Source: Escherichia phage EC150
Length of the DNA: 64,000 nucleotides
Reading direction: 5' to 3' (one strand)
Sequence record: ON210137.1
The position numbers and the translations under genes are program-made. The notes below the pieces were generated by a model. That model was not told where the DNA came from and did no database searches. It saw only the letters and a program-made list of their open reading frames with translations. Below, one piece after another: positions 5,963 through 62,945 of the stretch; the stretch's first letter is position 1; each line of letters opens with the position of its first letter.

Positions 5963-6209
5963 TGAATAAACGAACACTGTTTACGTGTTTTGAAGAATGG
6001 AATGTGTGCAATGGGTCGCTTTATGCGGCCTTTTGTCGTTTGGGTCGTGTTTTGCGATGGAATAATTATGATGAGGTGTTTTATTTATTGATTGTGCGGA
6101 AATATTTAGAAATATATTTCATAGGTCGTGTCTATTGGTCCGTGGTGTTTGTTAGATTATATCTATGGATTGAAATTTTAGTGTCGTGAAACGTGGTGTT
6201 TGAACACAT

Positions 6210-6575
6210 TTGATACGCCTAAAATACGGCTAAAAATTAAGCGTATCATGGCTGCAGGCCGCGTCGTTCCTGGATTCTTCTTTTTAAAATTGGTACACCC
6301 TTACGTCATGATACGTCATGGTTTTTTATCCGTATCAGTGTACAGCCCTTGCCGCGCCTGGCTTGTACATTAATCTTACGGATGATACGGATAAAACTGG
6401 GCATCGTTATATATAAAACTCCAAAAATAAATAAACTCCATTTTAAAAACATTTATATTAATTTTTTTCATATCCTCATACTTATGTTAATTTATATATT
6501 TAACGTATCATCCGTAAGATATAAGTAAAAACAAAGACTTGCGGCAATACGGATGATACGTCATGATACGCTTCA
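6210..6575. repeat. repeat-flanked AT-rich element, copy A
   Basis: Multiple copies in both orientations of CGTATCATCCGTA / TACGGATGATACG (9-mer unit TCATCCGTA) flanking a ~100-bp AT-rich core (6400-6500); homologous to 22190-22460. Confidence 0.6.
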
Positions 6576-6717
6576 ACCAGCCAGCAGCGGCTAAGTCATT
6601 GATTTGCATAACAAGCGGCGAAAGGGATGGATTTCTTTTATACGTATCAAACAGTACACCACGCACCACGGTCCGCTATTCATTCAGTACTATGATTTGT
6701 GTACGTTTACAGCCAAT

Positions 6718-6746
6718 TTGAACATCAATCTGCACTTGAATATAAT
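6718..6746 (+). promoter_or_regulatory. sigma70-type promoter, near consensus
   Basis: TTGAAC, 17-bp spacer, TATAAT, about 50 bp upstream of the ATG at 6799. Confidence 0.55.
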
Positions 6747-6774
6747 GTTCATTCATTGTATAATTCACACTATT

Positions 6775-7981
6775 AATTTGCACTATGGGATTTGCACTAT
6801 GAGTCAAGATTATGTAGCAATGCCTGAAGACTTTGAAGACCCGCGATTTGCAGAGCATAATCAGGCATTATTCGATGAGTTCATTGACCTTGTTATTCAG
6901 GGCCATGACATGCGCGCAGCTTTTGCACTAGTATTTGGCATGGAGGTTGCGACCGATAACTACACTGGCCAGCGAGTCCTCTGCACGCAACGCAATCCGT
7001 ACTACAAGATGCGCTACAAAAAGCGTATGGAAGAGATGCCATTGAAGGAATTGTGGAGCGTAAAGAGTTCCATCCACAATTTAGTGAAGCTTGTGCGTGA
7101 TCCAGAAGTCGCGGCGTCAGCCAAGCTTAATGCCATTCGTGAACTGAATATCATCTACGGCATCACGATGATTGATGAGAATGGCAATAGTAAAATGGGC
7201 CGTTCCATGGACGATTTCTACAAGGATTTTGGAGAGGCAGCCAAAGAGGGTGAGCAATTCTCCCGCCACTAGCCAATTTGCACTATAAAACGGCCCTAGA
7301 ACACATTTTCTCCACTTCTAGGGCCATCGGTAATACGACGGGGAAGGTTACAACCATAAACGCGTTAGAAAGTGTATTATTATAAGTCATCTTTTAGTCA
7401 CTTTACGTAACAATTTACGACCTTCCGCCGTCCAGTCGAACGACTCCACCAGCAGATTTGCACTATAACCTAAGACGATGCGCCCTTTCTCGTTATCGAC
7501 CCGCCAACAAGTCTCGAATAGCATTCGATTTGCACTATTAACTATCGCCGCAACGCGCGCTGGGTAAGCGCAATTTGCACTATGGTCGTAAAGGGATAAG
7601 GTGCGACCACTTCCGATGGACAACGTAGCGATGAGAATAAGCGTATTCATAAGCCACCAATTTGCACTATGAAAAGCGACCCCGAAGGGCCGCCATTCGA
7701 TTAGATGATCTGGAATGTGTATGACTTGTTGCCGAACTCGAAGTTCAAGCGCCCAGCTTCCTTAAGCTTCATGCGGAAGCGAATGTGCTTGCTATCCGGT
7801 AATCCCAGCGCGATGAAAGCTACGCGGACCGATTTGAACTCGCCTACACCCTCGACCATAACGCCGTTACGGGTGAGACGCTTTTGCGCCACTTCCTTAT
7901 TATCCCAACTTTTTGCAATGCCTTCGCTATTCGAACGGCGATGGGAAGAAGTTCCATTTTGCACTACGCAATTTGCACTAT
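6775..7981 (+). repeat. array of 9 same-orientation copies of an AATTTGCACTAT-like 11-12-mer
   Basis: Copies at 6775, 6790, 7275, 7456, 7528, 7572, 7659, 7956 and 7970; irregular spacing; two copies overlap the start of the 6799 gene. Confidence 0.6.
6799..7272 (+). CDS. hypothetical protein (157 aa), possible regulatory or DNA-binding protein
   Basis: ATG embedded in a motif copy and downstream of the near-consensus promoter; function is inference only. Confidence 0.5.
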   Translation: MSQDYVAMPEDFEDPRFAEHNQALFDEFIDLVIQGHDMRAAFALVFGMEVATDNYTGQRVLCTQRNPYYKMRYKKRMEEMPLKELWSVKSSIHNLVKLVRDPEVAASAKLNAIRELNIIYGITMIDENGNSKMGRSMDDFYKDFGEAAKEGEQFSRH

Positions 7982-8327
7982 CGTTTAGGCCGCTCTTAAC
8001 GAAGGCTTCATACTCTTCGTCGGTCATCGCGTCGAGTTCTTCCTGAGTCGGCTCAGACTTTTTAACGACCGCACGCGCCTTATGCGTTTTTACATCGCTG
8101 GGCACTTCCTCGCGCGGCTTCGCGTCGGGAATGGGCGATTCGTTGGACGGCTCATCGAGCGCGTTCAAGGACTCGATTAACGCGATTACGCGAGTCTCGG
8201 CGGTCCGGCGGTCCGCGAACTTTTTAATCGGCTTCGAACCGGAATTTGCGTTGTAAAATGCAACGAGGTCGGCGGTCTTAGTTGCGATAACGTCGCCGCT
8301 AGTCGAGAAGCGATTTAAGCTAACCAT
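7701..8327 (-). CDS. hypothetical protein (208 aa)
   Basis: AGGAG 6-7 nt upstream of start at 8327; 5' half CpG-rich like the adjacent island; 3' part overlaps two motif copies so extent is uncertain. Confidence 0.5.
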   Translation of the reverse strand: MVSLNRFSTSGDVIATKTADLVAFYNANSGSKPIKKFADRRTAETRVIALIESLNALDEPSNESPIPDAKPREEVPSDVKTHKARAVVKKSEPTQEELDAMTDEEYEAFVKSGLNDSANCVVQNGTSSHRRSNSEGIAKSWDNKEVAQKRLTRNGVMVEGVGEFKSVRVAFIALGLPDSKHIRFRMKLKEAGRLNFEFGNKSYTFQII

Positions 8328-8407
8328 AATAAACTCCTATTTGTTAGGGCGCTAAGCGCGAAAGAATTTTATTAAAGCGCCGCGCACGACGCTCTTAAAA
8401 TCCTCTC

Positions 8408-8692
8408 TTACGCTTCGACGAGGGAGAAGGTTTCAAATTCTTCTTCGCCCATAACGAGTAAAATATTCCCGATTTCGACCGCTTCGAAGAAGTATCCGTT
8501 AACGTTTACTTCGAAGGCTTCGCGGTCCGATTCCGGTAACGCCGCGTAAAGTTTAAAAGCCTCGGCGACCGTTACCCCACCCGCTTCGATAGTTTGGTCT
8601 ACGTTCGCGGCGTAGACTTCGGATAAATTTTGTTTTACGCCGTAGTTCTCGACGATAGCGTTACGGATAGAAGAAACGTTAAGAATAGCCAT
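8408..8692 (-). CDS. small acidic protein (94 aa), paralog of 9326-9616
   Basis: N-terminus and V.(V/I)NG(Y/F)...(V/I)EIG block align with the 9326-9616 product; conserved leader CTCCCAACTAGGAG upstream. Confidence 0.55.
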   Translation of the reverse strand: MAILNVSSIRNAIVENYGVKQNLSEVYAANVDQTIEAGGVTVAEAFKLYAALPESDREAFEVNVNGYFFEAVEIGNILLVMGEEEFETFSLVEA

Positions 8693-8832
8693 TTTAAACT
8701 CCTAGTTGGGAGAGGCGTTAACGACCTATTCGTTAACTCATCCCGTCCCGATATGAGTACATTATAATATAGTGTAGAAAAAAGTAAAGCACTTTTTCGA
8801 TAAAAATGCGATAAATTATTTTATCTTTTTCC

Positions 8833-8860
8833 TTTACTTCTTCGTACACTCGCGTATACT
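8833..8860 (+). promoter_or_regulatory. sigma70-like promoter, duplicated element copy 1
   Basis: TTTACT, 16-bp spacer, TATACT; whole ~45-bp unit (CTTTACTTCTTCGTACACT ... TTTATATCGAGA) repeated at 9229-9272. Confidence 0.4.
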
Positions 8861-8915
8861 TGTTTATATCGAGACGGGCGATGGCCTTCCTTCTACTAGC
8901 ATCGGGAGTTTTATT

Positions 8916-9218
8916 ATGACTACTTTAATCTCTTCTATCCTTACTTACGACGAAGACCGTTTAACCGTTCGTTCTCTTATCGCCGCCGTTAACGCGGAAC
9001 TAGAATCCACCATCATTAAGGTCCGCGCGGTCGCTTTCGTCGGCCTTTCCTTCGACGATATTAAGTATGCCGAACGTAGCGCCATCCGCTTCGCGAAGAC
9101 CGACGACGAAGCCGTTACCCTTATCGAGACGGTTACGCCGCGCGGCGAAGCGTTAATTATCGTCGAGTATATCGACGTAGAGGGCGATAAGGCTTATAAA
9201 TATTTTATCGCAAAATAA
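8916..9218 (+). CDS. small acidic protein (100 aa)
   Basis: ORF with its own copy of the duplicated promoter; CpG-rich codon usage unlike the rest of the window. Confidence 0.5.
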   Translation: MTTLISSILTYDEDRLTVRSLIAAVNAELESTIIKVRAVAFVGLSFDDIKYAERSAIRFAKTDDEAVTLIETVTPRGEALIIVEYIDVEGDKAYKYFIAK

Positions 9219-9229
9219 CGAAAAAGTGC

Positions 9230-9258
9230 TTTACTTCTTCGTACACTAAGACTATAAT
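9230..9258 (+). promoter_or_regulatory. sigma70-like promoter, duplicated element copy 2
   Basis: TTTACT, 17-bp spacer, TATAAT; same unit as 8832-8874. Confidence 0.4.
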
Positions 9259-9325
9259 GTTTTATATCGAGAGGGGAGAGGAAGCGAATAGGTCGCCTTC
9301 CCGCCCTCCCAACTAGGAGAATATT

Positions 9326-9616
9326 ATGATTACTTTATCCGCTATCCGTTCCGCTCGCGTCGAGACTTCCGAAAACTCTAACGTATTTGGCGAAACCTTA
9401 GAGAGCGTTTATCTCTCTAACGTCGACGCGACTATCGAATCTATTTATGAGCCGATCAACTTCCTCGACCTTTACAAGTATCGCGACGAGGACATCGTAT
9501 CATCCCGCGTAACTATCAACGGCTTCGTCTATACGATTACCGAAATCGGCGGCGAATATATCGCGGTCCCGCAACTCGGCGGCGAAGTAACTTATTTTAA
9601 AATCGTCTCCTTATAA
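9326..9616 (+). CDS. small acidic protein (96 aa), paralog of 8408-8692
   Basis: Aligns with the 8408-8692 product; AGGAG RBS inside conserved leader CTCCCAACTAGGAG. Confidence 0.55.
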   Translation: MITLSAIRSARVETSENSNVFGETLESVYLSNVDATIESIYEPINFLDLYKYRDEDIVSSRVTINGFVYTITEIGGEYIAVPQLGGEVTYFKIVSL

Positions 9617-9781
9617 TACCCTTCCGTTACTAATAGGCCGCGCTTAGTCGCGGCTTTTCTTCGTCCCTATCCCGATGCGCGTCTACGCGAAAACTCCTTT
9701 ATCCTTCCCTTCGTCGTCGCATAATCTTCTTCGAGATGCTCCTTAGTTCGCATAACAGGTATTACGTTAAATGGAGAACAT

Positions 9782-9854
9782 CGCGTAAGTCCTTGTTTTA
9801 TATAGACACCTATATCGGACCGTTAGGGCGGGTCGCGTAAGTCGTTGTTTTATA
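9782..9854. repeat. 21-bp direct repeat, 2 copies
   Basis: CGCGTAAGTCCTTGTTTTATA at 9782 and CGCGTAAGTCGTTGTTTTATA at 9834. Confidence 0.4.
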
Positions 9855-9979
9855 AAGGCGCAAAACTTTCCCTTCGTTCCGAACTAAAACGAGAAATGTG
9901 CCGACCCTTCGCCCGAAAATAGTACGTATGCGAAATTACATGCATCTCGAATAATCCCTCCCGATATTATCCTACACGC

Positions 9980-10042
9980 AATCATTCGCTTTCGAATCAT
10001 TATGCTTCATATTGTTATGCGTCGAATCATTCGCTTTCGAAT
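9980..10042. repeat. 18-bp direct repeat, 2 copies
   Basis: AATCATTCGCTTTCGAAT at 9980 and 10025. Confidence 0.4.
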
Positions 10043-10131
10043 TGTAACGCTGGAAACTGTAACGGCGATTGATTATTGCGTTCGTGTGGTTTTTATGGCA
10101 TGGGTCTTTTGGTGCGTTTTGGTACTTGATG

Positions 10132-11837: not shown

Positions 11838-14153
11838 TTATTTTGCTGATTTCAGCACGGCTATCTCTGCCTTGAGTTCATCAATCTGATCCATCAATGC
11901 GAGAATAGCCTCGTGGTGCAATGCCGCTGCAACGCCGTAAGTGTCAACTGACTTGATATCTTCGACAACAGTCCCATCCTTGAGTTCCGTGTTTGAATAT
12001 TTCAAAGTTTTTACTGCGTCAGGAAATACACCTTCTACATCTTGAGCTATAAATCCGATGCCATTCGGTTTCTCTGACTTATCAAGGCGCTCCCAAGTCA
12101 CACCCTTGATCAATCTCATCTTTCCTAACGGGTCGGAAATCCTTTGAATATTTGTTTTGACCCTCTCATCAGACGTGCTGACCCAGTTCCCTGCAGTAGC
12201 AGTACCATCAGGCATAAATTTGAAATCTGCTGCAGCGCCTTGCCCATTGTTTATGGATATTTGCGCGTGCATCAAATCAGTTCCAGTACCTCGAACGCCT
12301 CCGAATGTATAGCTGCCAGCATACCAATCCCCTGAAAAATATGATACATACCCAGGCGTTGACTGGTTGAAGTTTATCATCCTCATACCGTTGCTTTCAT
12401 ACGCTGAAACGCCTACTGAATTCAACGGTTGCACAACAAGGTCTTTTGGTCTGAGATATGCATTAACATTCAGCGCCCCGTCTGTCCTTTCCGTACTAAT
12501 TTGATTTATGGAGTTAGGGAAATAAAATGTGCCATCTTGCGCAAACTTCCATTCTTGCACCCCATTAGATATCACAGCACCTTGTTCAGACGTTAATCCA
12601 TCAATCTTACCGTATGCTTGCAAGAATGCTTGATACGCAATGTTGGTGCCAATTTTATATTCAGATTTTACACTGCCGCCACTGACAAGCGTTCCGGTTG
12701 CAGGTTTTACTGCGTCACCATTAATAACGCTCCAAGTCGTATTCGCAGCAGCAAATCCACCCGATGCACGAATCACCCAAACGCCTACAAAGTTACGACC
12801 CATTATTTCACTGTTTGAACGGCCATAAACCGGACTTACTCGCGAAGCATCAAAACTCACCCTAATAACACCATTACCAGTTACCGGTTCTGGTGACAAT
12901 GGTGTTTCTACCTGACCCGGTACAATAGCACCCGTCTGCCCGTAGGCGACGACGCCACCAATATCCCCGTAAATGTTTGGTGCAGCTGAATCAAACACAA
13001 CACCATCAGCGTTGGAGTTTGCGGTGCCATTTCCTGCGCCGTCACCTCGTCCATAAAGAGCGGCTAATGAACCGACTTGAACGCCGTTTTTGTCGGGCAC
13101 ACGGAAAGTCGTTGAGCCATTACCAAGAGAATACTTTCCGCGCTTTGTTGGGTCCGCAAGCCAATCCGCATCAGCAATAGGAGTCAGCATTTGAGCATAT
13201 GCCCAAAGCTCAGGCCAGTCTGCGCGGTTAAGCAATTGCCCGTCTGCAACAACTTCATATGGCTGGATGTAAGCACGGCTATCACGAAGATGAAAATCAC
13301 CAACACCATAGTTCATTACACCGTTCATGTTCGGTCCAACGGTGCCAGTGTTGATAAGGTTTTCAACCCAACGTTTAGTCGCAGCATCATAATCATTCAC
13401 AGGGTCACCAGCAAGCGGAGTTGGGCCTGTCGGTCGAATATTCAACCAAGCCTGCGCATTATCCCCTGATCCTGTGCCGCCCATGGAAGTGGGCACGATA
13501 TTTTGATCAGCGACTTGTCCGAATCCAAAAGCAGACTTCATGCCCTGAATAGTACTCTGCCCTGTGCCACCGTTTGCCACTGGTACTACATCAAGTTCGC
13601 TATAAACCTTTTTCCAAGGTGACCAAAAGTCGCCATTAAATACCCTGTTGTATTCAGGGCCAACCGTTGCTGTGTATTTTTGTGAACAAGCATTTGCTGA
13701 AATTTGGATTACTTCCAATACTCCAGACGATAAGGTTGGGTAGTTCAAAGCAGGTGATGCTGATAGACTGTTCGGCTGGTAATATTGGCCAAACCATGAA
13801 CCAGTCAAAGCATTGAGATTTATTCCGTTAGGAATCTCTCCAAAGTTTCGGACAGTACCCGTCAAAGTCGCAGCAGTAGTTCGAATGGAAAGCATGTCGC
13901 CAGCCGCCCATGCACGCGCTGCAGTTCCTTCCTGTGCACGCTGCACGGTCAGGACGTTTCCAACAACGGCTGTTACTGTGACGATTTCGAATTGGAGGCC
14001 TGTCGCAGCGTCTACGATTGTCGCCACTACACGCTCGTTTGCAGCCAAGGTCGGAAATCCCGACCCTGAGCGAATTGTGATTGTGGTGTCTGAAGTCGTC
14101 GTTGGCTGAGCGAGCGCGACCTCAAAGTTGTTTTTGAATATTAGCCTTGGCAT
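11838..14153 (-). CDS. tail fibre/tailspike with C-terminal intramolecular chaperone (peptidase S74-like) domain
   Basis: 771 aa; DAATKRWVE collar-like motif; Gly/Ser/Thr-rich body; C-terminal SDERVKTNI...ISDPLGK...GVTW...GFIAQDVEGVFPDAV typical of auto-cleaving chaperone domains. Confidence 0.85.
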   Translation of the reverse strand: MPRLIFKNNFEVALAQPTTTSDTTITIRSGSGFPTLAANERVVATIVDAATGLQFEIVTVTAVVGNVLTVQRAQEGTAARAWAAGDMLSIRTTAATLTGTVRNFGEIPNGINLNALTGSWFGQYYQPNSLSASPALNYPTLSSGVLEVIQISANACSQKYTATVGPEYNRVFNGDFWSPWKKVYSELDVVPVANGGTGQSTIQGMKSAFGFGQVADQNIVPTSMGGTGSGDNAQAWLNIRPTGPTPLAGDPVNDYDAATKRWVENLINTGTVGPNMNGVMNYGVGDFHLRDSRAYIQPYEVVADGQLLNRADWPELWAYAQMLTPIADADWLADPTKRGKYSLGNGSTTFRVPDKNGVQVGSLAALYGRGDGAGNGTANSNADGVVFDSAAPNIYGDIGGVVAYGQTGAIVPGQVETPLSPEPVTGNGVIRVSFDASRVSPVYGRSNSEIMGRNFVGVWVIRASGGFAAANTTWSVINGDAVKPATGTLVSGGSVKSEYKIGTNIAYQAFLQAYGKIDGLTSEQGAVISNGVQEWKFAQDGTFYFPNSINQISTERTDGALNVNAYLRPKDLVVQPLNSVGVSAYESNGMRMINFNQSTPGYVSYFSGDWYAGSYTFGGVRGTGTDLMHAQISINNGQGAAADFKFMPDGTATAGNWVSTSDERVKTNIQRISDPLGKMRLIKGVTWERLDKSEKPNGIGFIAQDVEGVFPDAVKTLKYSNTELKDGTVVEDIKSVDTYGVAAALHHEAILALMDQIDELKAEIAVLKSAK

Positions 14154-15566: not shown

Positions 15567-17027
15567 ATGAATAAAATATTAACACATAATTGGAAAGTCA
15601 TGTACCAGTTGAATCCTGCTTTAAGAGAAGTCTGGAAGACGAAAGCGCGATACAAAGTCATATACGGCGGTCGTGCATCTTCCAAATCGCACGATGCCGC
15701 TGGTTTTGCTATTTATTTGGCGGCAAACTTCAAATTAAAATTCCTTTGCGTTCGACAATTCCAGAACAAGATTTCTGAATCAGTATATACGCTATTAAAA
15801 GACAAAATAGAAATTTCTGATTTCAAAGACGAGTTCAACTTATTAAAGAACTCTATTGAACACAAAAGAACAAAATCTGAATTCTTATTTTACGGTATCG
15901 CACGCAACGTTGATGAAATCAAATCAACAGAAGGCGTTGATGTTCTTTGGCTTGAAGAAGCGCATGCGCTGACTGAAGAGCAGTGGGACATCATTGAGCC
16001 GACAATTCGTAAGGAAGGGTCCGAAATATGGATCATATTTAACCCTGATGAAGAGGCTGATTTTGTCTACCAGAACTTTGTCATGCGACCGCCGAAGAAT
16101 GCCATCGTTAAGAAGATTAACTGGCAAGACAACCCATTCTTGTCGCAAACAATGCTGGATGTTATCGCTGGCATGTATGAGCGCGACCCGAAAAAGGCAG
16201 AACACGTTTATGGCGGAGTACCGAAGACTGGCGGCGACAAGTCGGTAATCAACCGTGCATTCGTCAAGGCCGCGCTAAACCTCCACAAACACCCTACGCT
16301 GGGATGGAGCTTGTCAGGGTCTAACCGTATAGGCTTTGACGTGGCGGACGACGGCGACGACTTAAACGCCACAGCATTTGTCACTGGCAACGTATTGCGC
16401 GGCATCAAGACATGGGAAGGTCTGGAGGATGAATTGCTTAAGTCCGCAAGCGGAGTCTGGAAAGACGCATTGACATTCGGCGCATCAATCACCTATGACG
16501 CCATCGGTGTTGGTGCATTTGCTGGTTCAAAATTTGATGAGCTTAATGAGTGTGCAATCCATGAAAATCCAACATTCCCAAGAATCGAATTTAATGCGTT
16601 CAACGCGCAAGGTGCTGTTGATGATCCTGATGACGTTTTCCTTGAGTTACCACACGTTGAAATACTCAATAAAGACCATTTCGCAAACATAAAAGCGCAA
16701 AAATGGACTGAGATTGCCGAACGATTCAGAAAGACATATGAGTATGCGACAGGGCAAGCCGTATATCCGACCGATGAGTTGATTTCCATCGACACAGACG
16801 GCATCCCAGAACTTGGTATTCCCGCTTGGTCTGCGGAAGAGATTGAGACGTTTCTTTTTGAGATGTCAGCGCCGCGCAAAGATACGTCTGTTCTTGGTAA
16901 GTTCAAAGTTGAATCGAAAAAAGATATGGCAAAGCGTGGAGTCAAATCGCCTAACAAAGCGGACGCAGCAATCATGGCATTGATGAAACCAATTGTTGCA
17001 GCATCCGGCTTCTTCTCTAACCTTTAA
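15567..17027 (+). CDS. terL: terminase large subunit
   Basis: 486 aa; Walker A-like GGRASSKS; LWLEEAH Walker B-like; C-terminal nuclease-like region with acidic residues. Confidence 0.9.
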   Translation: MNKILTHNWKVMYQLNPALREVWKTKARYKVIYGGRASSKSHDAAGFAIYLAANFKLKFLCVRQFQNKISESVYTLLKDKIEISDFKDEFNLLKNSIEHKRTKSEFLFYGIARNVDEIKSTEGVDVLWLEEAHALTEEQWDIIEPTIRKEGSEIWIIFNPDEEADFVYQNFVMRPPKNAIVKKINWQDNPFLSQTMLDVIAGMYERDPKKAEHVYGGVPKTGGDKSVINRAFVKAALNLHKHPTLGWSLSGSNRIGFDVADDGDDLNATAFVTGNVLRGIKTWEGLEDELLKSASGVWKDALTFGASITYDAIGVGAFAGSKFDELNECAIHENPTFPRIEFNAFNAQGAVDDPDDVFLELPHVEILNKDHFANIKAQKWTEIAERFRKTYEYATGQAVYPTDELISIDTDGIPELGIPAWSAEEIETFLFEMSAPRKDTSVLGKFKVESKKDMAKRGVKSPNKADAAIMALMKPIVAASGFFSNL

Positions 17028-20222: not shown

Positions 20223-21074
20223 ATGGCTTTTAAAGCTTCGAAAAAACGTGAACGCCGCTCACCCGATAGAGTCGGGCGCGGCAGTCCGATAATCCCATCC
20301 AACGCTATTGCGATGGCCTATCGTCGTGAGATGAAAGGTCTTTGCTATGCGATGATTGACGACTATCAAGCAGGAATTGCTGAGTGGCTTGAAAAGAAGC
20401 AGGTTAAAAAGTTCTTTGCGCAAGACTCTGCTGATTCAACTTTTCAGACCTTGATGAAGCGACTGCAACTGAAATGGGCAAAAGCTTTCGCCCGTGTCGG
20501 GTCAAAGATTGCCGCAGATTTCATCAAGTCAGTTGAAAAGGGCGCCACTTCTGCTACATTTGCAAGTCTTAAATCTGCAGGAATAGAAGCGCCAAAAGCC
20601 ACATATAATAAATTCGTTGAGAACACTCTTAAAACAAGCGAGACGTTCAACACGACTTTAGTGACTAAGGTTGGCGAAGATATTCACAACAGGGTGTACG
20701 AAGCGGTGATGCTTTCGCTGACTTCGCCAGACCCAGCACAACAAGGCACGTCAGGCATTCAGGCGGCATTGCGAAACGTAAAACACTTCTCTGCAAAGAG
20801 AGTCGACTTGATCGCTAAAGACCAGACAAGCAAGTTGTATTGCGTTCTAAGCGATGAAAGGATGCGCCAGAATGGAGTCGAAGAATTTGAGTGGGCGCAC
20901 TCAGGAGCAGGAAAGGAGCCGCGAATCTCTCATGAACACGTCGACGGAATGAGATTCAAACTTGATGACAAGCGCCTATGGGAAGTTGGCGGCGAATTGA
21001 AGTTCAAAAAGGGTGACATCGGTCCTCCTGGATGGGCAATACACTGCAAGTGCAGAAAAATACCAATCATTTGA
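20223..21074 (+). CDS. head morphogenesis protein (MuF/SPP1 gp7-like)
   Basis: Start adjusted to internal ATG right after portal stop; position and length typical of minor head protein. Confidence 0.7.
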   Translation: MAFKASKKRERRSPDRVGRGSPIIPSNAIAMAYRREMKGLCYAMIDDYQAGIAEWLEKKQVKKFFAQDSADSTFQTLMKRLQLKWAKAFARVGSKIAADFIKSVEKGATSATFASLKSAGIEAPKATYNKFVENTLKTSETFNTTLVTKVGEDIHNRVYEAVMLSLTSPDPAQQGTSGIQAALRNVKHFSAKRVDLIAKDQTSKLYCVLSDERMRQNGVEEFEWAHSGAGKEPRISHEHVDGMRFKLDDKRLWEVGGELKFKKGDIGPPGWAIHCKCRKIPII

Positions 21075-21081
21075 GGTCATT

Positions 21082-22002
21082 ATGACGATACCAATCAGCA
21101 CGTTTCCTCTATCTGGACAAACGCCAGTATTGCCTGCTGTATATGCTAACGGTTTGGCGATTGTTTCAGAATTTACATCCGATAAAAACCTGATTGTTCC
21201 ATTGAGTCCGCCATTGGCATCTGGATACAATTCAGTTGGTCAATTCTTTATGATCGGTAATGATGGCGATTCTACCAGCAAGCCGAATCTGACACTTTCA
21301 GTTCCCAAAATGAACATAACAGACGTGCAGACTGGTTTAACTGCATCTACAATCACCATCGCTTTTGGAGAAGCAGTGATTATAGGCATGGAGTCTGGAG
21401 GGTCCAAGAATGCTGTCGCCGTTAAGGTAGTCAAATCCAGCGGCAACCAATACACGTTACCAGCGGCAACGGCTTCTGTTCTCGGCGGCGTCAAGATAGG
21501 AAGTGGCATAAGTGTTGCAGGTGACGGTACAATTAGTGTTACTCAATACTCGTTACCGATTGCATCAGCATCAACCTTGGGTGGCGTAAAAGTAGGAACG
21601 ACACTATCAATTGATGGTTCTGGAGTTCTTAATGCTGCTGCAAGCAATGTGCAAAACACAAGCAATAGTGTAAGCAATCCTCCGACAACTCTGGTGAATC
21701 TGGCAACATTAAACCTGCCTGCAGGGAAATGGCTTGTGACAGCAAGTCAGTTGACTGTCGCAACAGAAGGAGTTCAAGCGAATACCGGAATTACAGTAAA
21801 ATTGTCAACAAGTAATTCAGATATTACGGATGATGCATTCACGATGTCTGCTGGCATTCGGGCTGCAGGTCGTTTCGGCGGCAATATTCCAACAAAGATA
21901 ATTACTCTTGCCGCGCCTGGCAACGTGTATCTAAACTATCAATGCACAGACGCATTGACATCTACCGTTTACGGACAGATCACCGCAATTAAGTTGAACT
22001 AA
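21082..22002 (+). CDS. structural protein with fibre-like repeats (possible head fibre or decoration)
   Basis: Repeated ...A(T/S)AS(V/T)LGGVK(I/V)G... units; Gly/Ser/Thr-rich; GAGG RBS. Confidence 0.55.
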   Translation: MTIPISTFPLSGQTPVLPAVYANGLAIVSEFTSDKNLIVPLSPPLASGYNSVGQFFMIGNDGDSTSKPNLTLSVPKMNITDVQTGLTASTITIAFGEAVIIGMESGGSKNAVAVKVVKSSGNQYTLPAATASVLGGVKIGSGISVAGDGTISVTQYSLPIASASTLGGVKVGTTLSIDGSGVLNAAASNVQNTSNSVSNPPTTLVNLATLNLPAGKWLVTASQLTVATEGVQANTGITVKLSTSNSDITDDAFTMSAGIRAAGRFGGNIPTKIITLAAPGNVYLNYQCTDALTSTVYGQITAIKLN

Positions 22003-22012
22003 AGAGGAAGTT

Positions 22013-22150
22013 ATGCAAAAGATTATGCAGTCACGTTACGTTAAAGTGCGAAATATTAATTGCAACTCTTTGCTTTCTTGGAAATGGGCTGTTTACGACT
22101 CGATGCTGATTGGCGTTTTAGTTGCTGGAGTGCTTTTTAATATTCACTGA
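22013..22150 (+). CDS. small hydrophobic peptide (45 aa)
   Basis: ATG 5 nt after AAGAGGAAG; product has hydrophobic C-terminal half; below the size cut-off of the ORF track. Confidence 0.3.
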   Translation: MQKIMQSRYVKVRNINCNSLLSWKWAVYDSMLIGVLVAGVLFNIH

Positions 22151-22189
22151 ATCGCCTGGCAATGGATTGCCGCAGGATTTCACGCGTAT

Positions 22190-22460
22190 AATGACGTATC
22201 ATCCGTATCAAGTAAGTAGTTGTTTTCAAAAGAATCTTACGGATGATACGGATGATACGCGTTGCCGCGATACTTTATAGGAATTCAAATAAATTAATTT
22301 AAAATTATATATCTAATTTAATTTTATTTTTTTATAAACTCTTATATATGAAAAGTATCCGTATCATCCGTATCATCCGTAGCACACCAGTGATAGCGCG
22401 GCTTATACACCGATACGGATAAAAATACGCCTCATTTTATCCGTATCATCCGTATCACAC
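22190..22460. repeat. repeat-flanked AT-rich element, copy B
   Basis: Tandem and inverted copies of TCATCCGTA / CGTATCATCCGTA around an AT-rich core (22280-22350); homologous to 6210-6575. Confidence 0.6.
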
Positions 22461-22574
22461 TAATTAAGGCGCGCGGCTATATCGGTTGTTATACATATTC
22501 AAACCATAATTATTGTTTGCCTAAGTTTTTTTCATTAGATATAATACACAATACTTATTTGAGGGTGGATGCGA

Positions 22575-23987
22575 ATGCAAACGGCACGCGAAATTGACAA
22601 AAATGGATTCTTGACGATTGTGGGTTGTCCCATTTCGTCATTTGGCATTTTTGATTATTCTGCAGGTCAGGTTGGACTTGATGGTGATCCGAATCGCATC
22701 GTAAAAGTTTATCGCCCAGAGTCAGCGGTGAAAGACCCCGAAGCGATAGATTCATTCAAAAATATCCCTTTCATCGACAATCACGAAATGCTTTCTGGAT
22801 TCGAAGGTGATGAGGATAACACAGCACCCGAAGAGTATGGCGTTGATGGCGTTCTAACTGGCAATGTTTATTATGACAAGCCATGGATGCGCGGCGACCT
22901 TAAAGTTTTTAGCCGTCGTCTGAAGAAAGCCATCGATTCTGGAAAGGTTGACTTGTCTTTGGGCTATGACTGTGAATTCATCATACAGTCTGGAGAGTTT
23001 GACGGGCAGCCGTATGAAGTGGTACAGACAACTCTTCGCGGCAACCACATTGCTCTCGTGGACGTTGGTCGAGTACCAGGTGCACGGGTGCTGGATGGTC
23101 GTTGCTTTGACCATCTTTGTTTGACGACTGTAACACCATCCAACGAGGATTTAGACATGCCAAAACCGTTAAAAGGTAAAGCGCGTGATAATGCTGTTGA
23201 ACAGCTGAAGTCGCTGATCCCTGCGCTCGAACAATTTCTGAATGAAGAGAGCACCGAAGCTGCTCATCAGGACGAAGTTGAAGTGAAAGCAGAAGAGAAG
23301 GATTCAACCGAAGAACGTGAAGAAGTGATGGTTGATCCAGAAGTCAAAGCAGAAGCTGAAGAGACTCCAGAAGGTGAAGAGAAGTTTGAAGTTGAAACTG
23401 AATCTCACGCTGGCGGCGAGCTTCCGCAACTGATCAGCCAAATCGAAGCACTTATTGCAAAACTGAAAGGTGGCGCGGTAGGTGATGAAGAAGAAGTTGA
23501 AGCCGAAGTCAAAGACGAAGAAGTTGAAGTCAAGGCTGAAGATGTATCACCTTGCGACAAAGCTGAAGATGTGGTTAGCGGCCTGCAAAACAGCAACGTA
23601 AAGGGGGCTTCGGTCGAAAAAGATGACAAACCGACAAAAGCGGCGAAAGCGTCGCCAGGTCCAGCAAAAGGGGAACACTCAATGGCATCTGATTCAGCAG
23701 TTGCTGCTTTCTACGCTGATTCTGCTCGTAAGAATAGCCTCTACCAGCGCCTGTCTAAAGTTGTTGGTGCCTTTGATCATGCAACTATGGACTCCAAGTC
23801 CGTAGCGAAATATGGCGCTAAAAAGTTAGGCTTGAAGTGCGTTGATGGTGCTGAGTTTGACGTGGTGGATAATTATCTGCGCGGCGTTGAACACGGTCAA
23901 AAACAGCGTGTAGTCGCAAAACAAAAGGCTGCTGCGGATTCTGCAGCAACTGACGAAGCGTTTGAAGCTTGGTTGAAAGGGGAATAA
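22575..23987 (+). CDS. scaffolding protein (possibly with prohead-protease-like N-terminal domain)
   Basis: Position between head morphogenesis and capsid genes; highly acidic Glu/Val/Lys-rich central region; start adjusted to ATG 6 nt after GAGGGTGG. Confidence 0.55.
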   Translation: MQTAREIDKNGFLTIVGCPISSFGIFDYSAGQVGLDGDPNRIVKVYRPESAVKDPEAIDSFKNIPFIDNHEMLSGFEGDEDNTAPEEYGVDGVLTGNVYYDKPWMRGDLKVFSRRLKKAIDSGKVDLSLGYDCEFIIQSGEFDGQPYEVVQTTLRGNHIALVDVGRVPGARVLDGRCFDHLCLTTVTPSNEDLDMPKPLKGKARDNAVEQLKSLIPALEQFLNEESTEAAHQDEVEVKAEEKDSTEEREEVMVDPEVKAEAEETPEGEEKFEVETESHAGGELPQLISQIEALIAKLKGGAVGDEEEVEAEVKDEEVEVKAEDVSPCDKAEDVVSGLQNSNVKGASVEKDDKPTKAAKASPGPAKGEHSMASDSAVAAFYADSARKNSLYQRLSKVVGAFDHATMDSKSVAKYGAKKLGLKCVDGAEFDVVDNYLRGVEHGQKQRVVAKQKAAADSAATDEAFEAWLKGE

Positions 23988-23989
23988 AC

Positions 23990-24607
23990 ATGACTTTCCA
24001 AACTAGTGTAGGCCGTCAATATACAACTGGCTTTCCTGGCGACATCGTTCGCGACGGCCCACAGCGTGGGAAGCCAGGCCGAATTGCCAACGCTAACGAA
24101 GGCGCAAACGTAAACGCCATCAGCCGTGTGTTCGGTTTTAAGACTGACGTATCCTTAATGGGTACTGGTCAAACCAAAACTTTGGGCGCGCAGGACTTTG
24201 AAGTTGAGCTGGGCGGCACTAACTACTACGGCATCCTCGGCAATAGCAAGCGTTACGCGCTGTATGGCAACTCTACTGGCCCTTTGGGTGCCAGCATGGT
24301 TCTGCCTCAATATAGCGAAGGCGAGTTCTATGATATGTGCACGGGCCTCGTAGTTGAAGTATTCAACCCAAGCACCAGTCCGCAGACGCTTAACTATGGC
24401 GACCTGCTTGCTTATGTACCTAAAGGCATTTCCAGCGGTAACAACCCGAACAACTTGCCTATTGGTGCAATTATCGCCTATACTGGCTCATTGCCAACTG
24501 GCATGGTTGCCATCCCAGGCGGTATTGTGATTGACCCGACGACTATTGCCCTTTCCGGCCCAAGCGTCCAGTCTTCCACTTATACCATTGTACAATTGAC
24601 TCGTTAA
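23990..24607 (+). CDS. head protein (about 205 aa)
   Basis: Gly-rich ORF between scaffold and major capsid genes; start adjusted to internal ATG. Confidence 0.5.
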   Translation: MTFQTSVGRQYTTGFPGDIVRDGPQRGKPGRIANANEGANVNAISRVFGFKTDVSLMGTGQTKTLGAQDFEVELGGTNYYGILGNSKRYALYGNSTGPLGASMVLPQYSEGEFYDMCTGLVVEVFNPSTSPQTLNYGDLLAYVPKGISSGNNPNNLPIGAIIAYTGSLPTGMVAIPGGIVIDPTTIALSGPSVQSSTYTIVQLTR

Positions 24608-59192: not shown

Positions 59193-60038
59193 TTATTCCG
59201 CTTGATCACCGTCTTCGGCATCTTCGTTGGATTCAACATCGACAAACTCGATGTGACCCATCTCTTCCAGCTTGCTCAGGTAGGAGCGAACTGAAGCGCC
59301 AAACAGTTGATCTTTAACTTTTTCGCCCAGCTCATCGATAGACTGTGCCACGCCAACTTCGCCTTCTTTGATCGCCGCCAGAACGCGTCCACGGGTGGAA
59401 TGCTCTTGCGGCTGACTCAGGCCATTGCCAGTGTAGATGAAGTGAGTAGCTTTTGCACGACGCTGACCATTGGCCTTTTTGGCAGCCTTACGTTCTGCGA
59501 TGGCTTTGCGACGTTCTTCAGCTTCTTGCTTACGCTGTTCTTTCTGCTGTTCTGCAGCTTCTTTCGCCGCAATCTTAGCAGCTTCACGCTCTGCCTTGCG
59601 TTTCGCTTTGGCTTCTTCTTTGGCCTTCTCTTTTTCGGCCTTCGCTGCAGCACGGGCTTGATCACGCTCTGCTTTCTTAGCAGCAGCTTGTTCAGCTTTC
59701 AGGCGCTTGGCTTCTTCTTTAGCCTTTGCCTTTTCGATTTCTTTCGCTGCTTTAGCGGCTTCACGCTCTGCTTTCTTAGCAGCAGCCTTTTCTGCACGCT
59801 CTTTGGCCTTCTTGGCTGCTTCTTCAGCACGCTTCTGAGCCTTCTCATCAGCAGCCTGCTTGCGTTTCAGGGCAGCTTCTTCACGCTTGGCTTGTTTTTC
59901 CTGCTCACGCTTCTGGCGTTTTTCTTCGGCTTCTTTCTTTTTAGCCAGACGTTTTTCTTCAGCCACGCGACGACGTTCTGCTGCAGCTGCTTGTTTTTCT
60001 TCTTTAGATAATACTTTGATTGCTTCGGCCATGTTCAC
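59193..60038 (-). CDS. Lys/Ala/Glu-rich low-complexity protein with acidic C-terminal domain
   Basis: About 190 aa of charged helical repeat (EEKR..KAK.EA...) then a ~90-aa C-terminal domain ending in an acidic tail. Confidence 0.6.
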   Translation of the reverse strand: MNMAEAIKVLSKEEKQAAAAERRRVAEEKRLAKKKEAEEKRQKREQEKQAKREEAALKRKQAADEKAQKRAEEAAKKAKERAEKAAAKKAEREAAKAAKEIEKAKAKEEAKRLKAEQAAAKKAERDQARAAAKAEKEKAKEEAKAKRKAEREAAKIAAKEAAEQQKEQRKQEAEERRKAIAERKAAKKANGQRRAKATHFIYTGNGLSQPQEHSTRGRVLAAIKEGEVGVAQSIDELGEKVKDQLFGASVRSYLSKLEEMGHIEFVDVESNEDAEDGDQAE

Positions 60039-61862: not shown

Positions 61863-62945
61863 ATGGCTAGTTTAAGAGAAGAAGCAAAAATAATCGAAGA
61901 GTTTTTGACAGAACTCCAAAGAGGCATTCCAGAAGATGAACGCGTCATGACCGTGTTTGCGCCTGAAGCAACGGTGCAGACCGACGAGCGCGGCAAAAAG
62001 ATTAACAGCAGCTTCTGGCCTAAGCCTTGGAAGCTTGGCAAGCCGCTGATGCAACATCAGAACGGTTACGCCTGCATAAGTTCAATGCGTAAGTCTCCCA
62101 ACCCAAAGACAGGCGAGATGCGATACTGGCGCACGGAATCGGCTTTCGGTCATGGCATGGCGATGATGGTCGACGACATCGGTCACGGTAAAGGGTCCAA
62201 AGGCGATTTAGATTTAGAGTTCTTTTTCGAGCGTCTGAAGCCAACCGTCATTGTTGAGACTTCACCGAACAACCACCAGCTGTGGTATTTCTTTAAAGAC
62301 CCGATTGACCATCTTATCCAGTTCAAAGCATTCCTTGGGTCTTTCGTAAACATGGTACTCAAGAAGGGCGGCGACAACACGATTAAAGACGTGACGCGCG
62401 TGGGCCGTGTTCCTGGTTGCATCAACAACAAGCGTGTGACTCACGACGGCCCTTACAAATATGTCGATGAGAACGGCGACCCGTTCCGCTGCCGACTTGT
62501 CCATGCAGACTATTCTTTGCGATACACAATCGAAGAGATTTGCCAAGCCTTCGGTTTCCACGTCGTTATGCCGCAAAAGCGTGAAATTCAAATTGACGTT
62601 GACGAATACAAATATGATGCTGTTTGGTATAAAATAGCCCAGCAAATCCTTTCGCGCAATAAGATGGGTGAAGGGTCCGATGGCGATGTTGTTGAAAACA
62701 TGTCAGGTAAATGCCGCATCATCTGCCCTTGGGGTGAAGAGCACACCAACGGCGACCCATATGGCGCTTACTTTCGCGGCCCAATCCCTGGCGCTGAACA
62801 TGAATTCGTTTTCGGTTGCGCTCACGACTGTCACCGGAAAGGTGAAGGTAAGAAAGGCTGGACAGCTTTTGTTGAAGCAGTAGTCATGCCTTATATTGAG
62901 AATCAACTTGATATGATAAATCGTCGCGCAGGTGGCATAAAATAG
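61863..62945 (+). CDS. primase-like / replication initiation protein with zinc-binding region
   Basis: 360 aa; MMVDDIGHG acidic motif; Cys/His cluster CRIICPWGEEH...FGCAHDCH; assignment is tentative. Confidence 0.4.
   Translation: MASLREEAKIIEEFLTELQRGIPEDERVMTVFAPEATVQTDERGKKINSSFWPKPWKLGKPLMQHQNGYACISSMRKSPNPKTGEMRYWRTESAFGHGMAMMVDDIGHGKGSKGDLDLEFFFERLKPTVIVETSPNNHQLWYFFKDPIDHLIQFKAFLGSFVNMVLKKGGDNTIKDVTRVGRVPGCINNKRVTHDGPYKYVDENGDPFRCRLVHADYSLRYTIEEICQAFGFHVVMPQKREIQIDVDEYKYDAVWYKIAQQILSRNKMGEGSDGDVVENMSGKCRIICPWGEEHTNGDPYGAYFRGPIPGAEHEFVFGCAHDCHRKGEGKKGWTAFVEAVVMPYIENQLDMINRRAGGIK

Follow-up and report, generated by a model that had tools for sequence, protein, structure and literature searches.

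Paired repeat and AT-core elements of Escherichia phage EC150 as candidate replication origins, one of them at the genome end

The stretch of Escherichia phage EC150 DNA analysed here (64,000 nucleotides of record ON210137.1; hereafter the window) contains two related elements, in each of which short repeats are arranged around an AT-rich core: copy A, at 6209–6650, and copy B, whose true extent is ~22158–22480 and which is located upstream of the head maturation protease gene. Judged from sequence comparison, there is roughly an even chance that copy B is a second, distal Rep-type replication origin (oriB) of the iteron/unwinding-element type and that, as part of the same reading, copy A is a sister origin that doubles as the packaging start. 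The part that the two copies share is best read as a Rep-type origin because it combines opposed iterons with the two places in the window that melt most readily, and because the genus encodes a helicase resembling the Rep proteins of Staphylococcus aureus pathogenicity islands (SaPIs). An earlier sequence-only reading of copy B had proposed several functions for the two elements, and among these paired origins appear to be the best supported for the shared part.

In the proposed mechanism, ~11 units of CGTATCAT, in two opposed sets around a 75–80 bp core with 90% A+T, would be bound by the winged-helix C-terminal domain of a VapE-like, SaPI-Rep-like self-loading helicase. One helicase hexamer would load on each side, the core would then melt, and the RepB-type primase and the polymerase of the phage would begin synthesis at the melted core. 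We infer both the identity of the repeat-binding protein and the start of DNA synthesis at copy B. Copy A would additionally have been taken over for packaging, with the terminase cutting the left genome end in its AT core; the small terminase gene (terS) downstream and extra outer repeats, which are not present in copy B, would belong to this packaging role.

The window belongs to the genus Wifcevirus and derives from a PB1-like E. coli myovirus; over 21000–24000 it is 99.6% identical to phage FEC19. Wifcevirus phages are myoviruses of E. coli and Shigella with genomes of ~68 kb and are distant relatives of the Pseudomonas PB1-like Pbunavirus phages, which rank with the Pseudomonas phages employed most often in personalised therapy (PMC11990801). 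A limited literature search found no paper describing the A and B elements and no origin mapping for Pbunavirus or Wifcevirus, and the pac site of the clade was found to be undefined or given as a tentative coordinate. Exact DNA candidates can now be given for the origin and pac functions, and the position of terS, far from the large terminase gene terL and beside the genome end, would be explained. A large clade of virulent myoviruses may likewise be driven by a duplicated Rep/iteron module of the SaPI type, and a terminus cut inside an origin would, if true, constitute a new link between replication and packaging. Wifcevirus phages have been proposed for biocontrol and biotechnology, and copies A and B and the terminal-repeat boundaries, as putative cis-acting sequences, must stay intact in genome engineering and synthetic rebooting.

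Architecture of copy B and its homology to copy A

The repeats of copy B are strongly concentrated in the two elements. The word ATCCGTATC occurs nine times in the window against 0.36 expected, a count reached by none of 100 shuffled sequences, and TCATCCGTA occurs ten times against 0.41 expected, also unmatched by the shuffles; all occurrences fall within 6328–6556 in copy A or 22199–22456 in copy B, except for a single one at 21825. CGTATC/GATACG hexamers are distributed in the same manner, with 18 of the 35 in the window lying inside the 840 bp of the two elements. Copy B comprises ~11 CGTATC(AT) units, nine exact and two degenerate, in opposed arrays around the AT core, and their consensus in the window is CGTATCAT, with a 9-bp period. 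Tandem Repeats Finder returns three perfect 9-bp arrays, at 22238–22259 (2.4 copies, inverted), 22357–22381 (2.8 copies), and 22439–22457 (2.1 copies), and a perfect 22-nt inverted repeat (22238–22259 and 22360–22381) brackets the core. The tandem and inverted arrays that the sequence-only reading had described are thereby borne out, at 9–10 hits against ~0.4 expected, and the element extends beyond the 22190–22460 originally assigned to it.

The layout is nearly palindromic, with two (+), three (−), the AT core, three to four (+), two (−), and two (+) units following one another. At the left edge, a hairpin (GGCAA-TGGA-TTGCC) stands with an outer-left GCCGC box at 22158–22173, and its arms are kept in all seven aligned Wifcevirus genomes. 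An outer-left unit pair, CGTATCATCCGTATC, follows on the + strand at 22195–22209, and then the inner-left iteron array, CTTACGGATGATACGGATGATACG, at 22236–22259 on the − strand, whose three units point away from the core and are invariant in the seven genomes. The inner-left GCCGC box (22264–22268) has the same orientation in Pbunavirus 14-1, in the metagenomic relative L035, and in Burkholderia phage BcepF1. On the other side of the core, the inner-right array of three to four units, GTATCCGTATCATCCGTATCATCCGTAGC (22352–22383, + strand), mirrors the left array and is followed by the inner-right GCGGC box (22398–22402), which is oriented opposite to the left boxes, by the outer-right inverted units CGATACGGATAAAAATACGCC (22411–22431, − strand), by the outer-right tandem pair TTTTATCCGTATCATCCGTATC (22436–22457, + strand), and by the outer-right GCGGC box (22473–22477). 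GCCGC boxes thus lie left of the core (22169 and 22264) and GCGGC boxes right of it (22398 and 22473), a polarity that is the same in other genera; the pentamer itself, at 4.6 per kb in the window, is not enriched.

The core between the arrays (22269–22349), a putative DNA-unwinding region, is 90% A+T, and its sub-stretch 22289–22349 is 95% A+T. Nearest-neighbour free energies show no less stable duplex anywhere in the 64 kb (z ~5), and this core ranks first at window sizes of 60, 80, and 100 bp, with the core of copy A (6423–6503) ranking second. The AT-rich core reported by the sequence-only reading is thus confirmed. Copy A itself has nine exact CGTATC/GATACG units and three degenerate ones around an AT core at 6408–6508. 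The homology of the two copies, another of the earlier claims, was examined by local alignment, which scores 55 in direct and 88 in inverted orientation against 20.7 ± 3.0 for shuffled sequences, and the sub-motif said to be common to both was recovered as GATACGG-ATAAAAATACGCC at 22412–22431 in copy B and TGATACGCCTAAAATACGGC at 6211–6230 in copy A.

The position of copy B, in a 418-bp intergenic gap between a 45-aa open reading frame (ORF) and the protease gene, raises the alternative that it is a transcription-control region of the protease/scaffold/major-capsid operon, with the repeats serving as operators of a regulator; the AT core would then serve the operon promoter as a bent or UP-like element on its upstream side, and copy A would act likewise for terS. 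We regard this as decidedly unlikely. Copy B does lie between the small ORF with its hairpin and a good sigma-70-like promoter (TTGCCT-17-TATAAT, 22517–22545, + strand, 10/12 matches), and the −10 region of this promoter, GATATAATACA, is conserved across genera, being found also in Serratia phages MyoSmar and MTx and in Pbunavirus. Tandem sigma-70-like promoters, found by a promoter scan at 6718–6764 (+ strand), follow copy A upstream of terS, and an invariant core sequence would suit specific protein contacts. However, the promoter adjoins copy B from outside the repeat element, 59 bp downstream of the last repeat, and most of the repeats lie 130–320 bp upstream of the −35 hexamer. The AT core holds no promoter-like site, the single weak match (22348–22376) beginning at its right edge, and operators are not usually laid out as a symmetric array of 300 bp with a melt-prone 75-nt core at its centre. 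A control region would also leave the genome terminus in the twin element unexplained, and no candidate regulator was identified. The late-operon control suggested earlier retains a small probability because of the nearby promoter.

Conservation of the paired elements in PB1-like phages

All 28 Wifcevirus records contain copy B, at 94–99% identity. When seven Wifcevirus genomes are aligned, its arms and core and the adjoining promoter hardly vary, and the core shows no substitution and one 1-nt indel; copy B is conserved at least as well as the neighbouring genes. Because recombination has made the neighbourhood a mosaic, in which identity at third codon positions varies between 67% and 99%, conservation within the genus is by itself weak evidence of selection.

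The A/B pair is found at the same two positions in Wifcevirus, Pbunavirus 14-1, Serratia phage MyoSmar, and Burkholderia phage BcepF1, in answer to the question, raised by the sequence-only reading, of whether related phages keep both copies. The same reading had considered a location inside the structural gene module unexpected for an origin, yet the position upstream of the protease gene is conserved in at least four genera. Each lineage has its own repeat word, which is common to its A and B copies and nearly absent elsewhere. For copy B this word is CGTATCAT in the window, TACTTTTCG in Serratia phages MyoSmar and MTx, GGTAATTTGG / CCTAATTTCC in Pbunavirus elmo and 14-1, and TAACTA(A) in BcepF1; for copy A it is ACGTATCA in the related contig L037, with the same CGTATCA core as in Wifcevirus, TATCCGCAAGA in L038, AATAGTTG in L035, and ATAGTTAAC in Maja. 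In 14-1 the repeat words occur genome-wide only at 12.8–13.1 kb (copy B) and 59.0–59.4 kb (copy A), the latter position being between the VapE-like gene gp75 and terS (gp76). In BcepF1, TAACTA(A) occurs nine times at copy B, at least seven times at copy A, and not at all in 16 kb of early genes, and in the copy A of L038 all nine units read TCCGCA where Wifcevirus reads TCCGTA. The alignment of A with B is significant in each genus, and the direct orientation is clearly preferred in the Wifcevirus phage WFH, 14-1, and MyoSmar. This concerted change of the repeats at both positions implies that the same sequence-specific factor reads both copies and evolves with the phage.

The same comparison makes it highly improbable that copy B is a functionless duplicate of copy A or a small mobile insertion derived from it (a miniature inverted-repeat element). 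The homology of the copies and the apparent arm exchange between them in some genomes would be compatible with such a history, but copy B keeps its syntenic position in Wifcevirus, Myosmarvirus, Pbunavirus, and Bcepfunavirus, in each lineage its repeat word changes together with the copy-A word, its conservation matches or exceeds that of the adjoining genes, and no further copies of the element were found in the genomes examined. Recombination, another of the earlier suggestions, is seen as an apparent exchange of arms in some lineages, but not as a function of the elements. In the more distant relatives L010 (61.8 kb), L011, and L012, no such element is present upstream of the protease gene, which restricts it to the PB1-like clade.

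The left half of copy A (6180–6440, outside the terminal repeat) exists in three unrelated variants in Wifcevirus, with the breakpoint at the packaging cut site. The window carries the variant of phage WFC, despite structural genes 99.6% identical to those of FEC19. In the variant found in FEC19, WFH, ECML-117, and Mansfield, the left arms of copies A and B hardly differ, suggesting that sequence has been exchanged between them. In 14-1, an inverted repeat of 12–17 nt brackets each AT core, as CTACTGCCGCG...CGCGGCAGTAG in copy B (12858–13090) and as TTAGTGCCGCG...TGCGGCACTAA in copy A (59,210–59,420 of the record), and differences between the copies are matched in both arms, which hints at pairing or at arm-to-arm copying. 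One end of a 68,520-bp metagenomic contig from IMG/VR (L006) falls precisely on the left arm of copy B, at ~22234; a physical terminus at this place was considered and rejected, since the two copies share at least 30 nt here and assemblers typically break at such points, the most likely origin of this contig end.

Candidate binding proteins and the genome end in copy A

A protein that could read the repeats at an origin is encoded by the genus. The VapE-domain protein of Wifcevirus (P0001, taken at the level of the genus), which is 99% identical to Bas99_0064 and annotated as 'DNA primase', matches SaPI1 Rep1 (PDB 7PDS) by sequence with an E-value of 7e-11. Its AlphaFold2 model (predicted local distance difference test score, pLDDT, 87) has a winged helix of the order H-b-H-H-b-b at residues 436–505, and Foldseek aligns the model with Rep1 at an E-value of 1.6e-16 over ~480 columns (template modelling scores 0.51/0.61), the next-best chains being eight orders of magnitude weaker. 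The genus thus has a putative cognate helicase of the VapE/Rep type with a C-terminal winged helix, as SaPI-like origins do in the form of an SF3-type self-loading Rep, and this C-terminal domain is the least conserved part of the helicase between genera. By the gene order of Bas99, the gene lies just beyond the end of the window. The RepB-type DNA primase gene (61863–62945, + strand; Pfam PF16793, E-value 4.1e-36) lies within the window, beside the replication module.

Copy-A analogues stand directly after the VapE-like gene in 14-1, JG024, MyoSmar, L035, Maja, and BcepF1, and the order of rep-like gene, element, and terS is conserved in Pbunavirus, MyoSmar, L035, Maja, and BcepF1. This adjacency does not choose between the Rep-like helicase and the small terminase (TerS) as the binder of the repeats.

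Several observations weigh against the origin reading and against the helicase as binder. The helicase is assigned to EC150 from its relatives, its gene falling in the ~4.4 kb outside the window. Copy B is not adjacent to the rep-like gene, and the Wifcevirus copy A is itself ~8 kb from it. The invariance of the B core within the genus exceeds the need of a simple unwinding element, and GC skew and cumulative skew follow gene orientation, with no origin signal in the window. The putative DNA-binding N-terminus of TerS is also divergent between genera, and helicase and TerS both change in step with overall divergence, a comparison that covers only three close lineages (Wifcevirus, L037, and L038). 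Because terS adjoins copy A in every lineage and the terminus falls between the arms of copy A, TerS is an equally placed candidate binder.

The genome end is precisely located. Phages WFC and WFH were published with ~3.7 kb terminal repeats (PMC6563267), and a 3,673-bp direct terminal repeat was determined for Mansfield by PhageTerm (PMC6753283). The terminal repeat of WFH is 3,701 bp and exact, and its boundaries map to the window between 6439 and 6440 and between 10109 and 10110. The Mansfield and WFH ends, determined independently, coincide to the base at both boundaries, and the ends are therefore precise and reproducible. By homology with these two phages, the left virion DNA end of the window, ...TTAACTCC/ATTTT (the slash marks the end), falls inside the AT core of copy A, and a direct terminal repeat of ~3,670 bp would run from 6440 to 10109, with a right boundary of ...GGGTCTTT/TGGTGCG. 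A PhageTerm boundary of MyoSmar (PMC6753285) and a putative pac site of JG024 at 59,376 (PMC10913387) likewise fall in the copy-A analogues of these phages, 30–46 nt right of the left repeat arm, as the Wifcevirus end does. None of the determined ends is inside copy B, all being at the two boundaries given above, and the cut sequence TTAACTCC/ATTTT is absent from copy B at the homologous place.

The first gene of the terminal repeat is terS (6799–7272, + strand, 157 aa), which matches the E217 TerS decamer (PDB 7UXE) by phmmer with an E-value of 1.3e-32. It is annotated as TerS in Mansfield and as 'hypothetical protein' in most Wifcevirus records, including those of the BASEL phages, and it lies 8.3 kb from terL (15567–17027). 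Packaging-linked features are confined to copy A, where they comprise the terminus, terS, the cut sequence, the CGTGGTG/CACCACG flanks, and the ATTTGCACTAT array. The outer repeats CGTGGTG (two copies, 6141–6198, + strand) occur on the left flank of copy A only, with none near copy B, and a motif search finds CACCACG (two copies, 6657–6670, + strand), inverted relative to them, on the right flank of copy A only.

These features bear on a second explanation, in which copy B, as a paralogue of the pac/terminus element A, would offer the small terminase another place to dock, with TerS rings binding both arrays. In one variant of this explanation, modelled on Black's twin-ring pac synapsis in T4, pairing of the uncut copy B with copy A could serve to sense concatemers or to time packaging; in another, copy B could keep TerS close to the head operon. 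Two independent studies place the left virion end, at the same base, between copy A's repeat arms; the MyoSmar boundary and the JG024 pac site take the same relative place; a terS of the 7UXE type follows copy A in all lineages examined; and repeats on both sides of the cleavage region match the layout of the SPP1 pac site (PMC9611059). According to the same review, which also describes the T4 synapsis model, two rings of E217 TerS may be joined by the C-terminal helix of the protein, yet E217 TerS shows no appreciable DNA binding in vitro (PMC9611059). Moreover, no DNA end at copy B appears in any record or paper found, copy B is ~15 kb away from terS, unlike a pac site beside its terS, and it has neither the cut sequence nor the A-specific repeats, which are the better TerS candidates. 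No phage is known with a conserved second pac-like site, and an extreme A+T core with opposed short iterons equally marks Rep-type origins. A docking site at copy B is accordingly held to be a minority possibility. The packaging signal proposed by the sequence-only reading is thus retained for copy A, where the left end of the terminal repeat lies in the AT core and is followed by terS, and is not retained for copy B; the mapping of virion termini that it had called for gives the same division, with an end inside copy A and, among published ends, none at copy B.

Further repeats were observed around the terminal repeat. Against an expectation of 2.5, the window has 11 occurrences of the word TTGCACTA. 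Ten of them, in the form (A)ATTTGCACTAT and uniformly on the + strand, form an array at 6778–7980 that surrounds and follows terS within the initial 1.5 kb of the terminal repeat. The similar word TTTGCAGTACAC occurs twice just outside the right repeat boundary (10135 and 10232). No repeat of the ATTTGCACTAT type was found in copy B, and the ATTTGCACTAT/TTTGCAGTACAC arrays are candidate packaging or regulatory repeats. In L037, the outer repeats CGTGGTG/CACCACG have 20-mer versions, GAACCGTGAACTGTGGTGTA.

Known systems and neighbouring features

The closest system, in both mechanism and protein homology, is the SaPI Rep/ori module. SaPI Reps are self-loading initiator helicases whose C-terminal winged helix recognises 6–12 short iterons, and these iterons lie immediately downstream of rep, where they flank an AT-rich region in two equal halves that point in opposing directions (PMC9371898). 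Like the SaPI origins of the Rep and Pri-Rep types (PDB 7PDS and 7OLA), copy B has opposed sets of short iterons flanking a central AT-rich region, and each element has a repeat sequence of its own. The resemblance of the phage helicase to Rep1, seen in sequence, extends in predicted fold to almost the entire protein, winged helix included, and copy-A analogues stand right after the rep-like gene in most lineages. Unlike the SaPIs, which are satellite islands, the phage is a virulent 68 kb myovirus with two copies of the element per genome, of which copy B is far from the rep-like gene and copy A holds the packaging cut.

Two elements that share iterons are found in the satellite phage P4, in which ori and crr carry the same iterons and are both bound by the C-terminal domain of the alpha primase-helicase. 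One of the P4 elements is located just downstream of the initiator gene, and crr, which lacks its own AT-rich core, does not serve for initiation. Copies A and B resemble ori and crr as two cis elements, kilobases apart, with the same short iterons, but both copies have the full layout of repeats, AT core, and repeats, and they are spaced by 16–20 kb rather than the 4.5 kb of P4.

In Bacillus phage SPP1, oriL and oriR have the same repeat boxes and an AT-rich part, both are bound by G38P, and one of them lies in the late region. EC150 likewise has two origin-like sites with shared repeats. Unlike the situation proposed here, in which the terminus falls inside an origin-like element, the origins and pac of SPP1 are separate loci with different binders, and SPP1 packages by headful, whereas Wifcevirus has exact terminal repeats. 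Copy A also resembles the contact layout of the SPP1 pac site, in which multiple TerS contact points flank the cut (PMC9611059).

The primase gene of the window invites a further comparison of the opposed GCCGC/GCGGC boxes of both elements with the RepB'/ssi system of IncQ plasmids. The IncQ plasmid RSF1010 has an oriV with the RepB' primase and the sites ssiA and ssiB. The phage resembles it in encoding a RepB-family primase and in having iterons, an AT-rich stretch, and opposed GC-rich boxes. It differs in having no RepC homologue and no demonstrated ssi hairpins; a single short hairpin (22158–22171) is evident in copy B, and the opposed pentamer is common throughout the window. The comparison is only a lead.

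With regard to packaging, the pac site of phage P1, a single site, has short repeated hexamers on both sides of the cleavage region. Copy A similarly has repeats flanking the cut, while copy B, unlike P1 pac, is not known to be cut. The twin-ring model for T4 gp16 holds that TerS rings join two homologous sites, of which the second in T4 is regarded as fortuitous (PMC9611059); copy B, in contrast, is a conserved feature. The present elements stand apart from all of these systems in that a virulent myovirus has two complete copies, that one copy lies at a distance from rep, and that a genome end is cut within one copy. It is unlikely, in our estimate, that one shared element type runs both replication and packaging in PB1-like phages. 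In that case, the Rep-like helicase would open either origin, the terminase, guided by TerS and the A-specific repeats, would cut the opened core of copy A, and the uncut copy B, 16–20 kb away, would pair with copy A by handcuffing or twin-ring synapsis, timing the switch from replication to packaging or sensing concatemers. To our knowledge, physical coupling of origin firing and packaging initiation has not been described for any model phage.

The immediate surroundings of copy B were also inspected. Rfam assigns no family to copy B, the best score being 31.8 bits against a gathering score of 80, and the sub-threshold hairpin matches reflect the inverted repeats; Pfam gives no match for TerS or for the small neighbouring ORFs. 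The downstream neighbour of copy B is the head maturation protease gene (22569–23987, + strand). The left boundary of copy B is formed by the small conserved ORF (22013–22150, + strand, 45 aa), which has a hydrophobic C-terminus (...LFNIH), is itself the downstream neighbour of the head-fibre gene, and is annotated as a hypothetical protein in WFH, WFC, and Bas99. In MyoSmar and MTx, counterparts of this small ORF with an ...ILH ending immediately precede the copy-B element.

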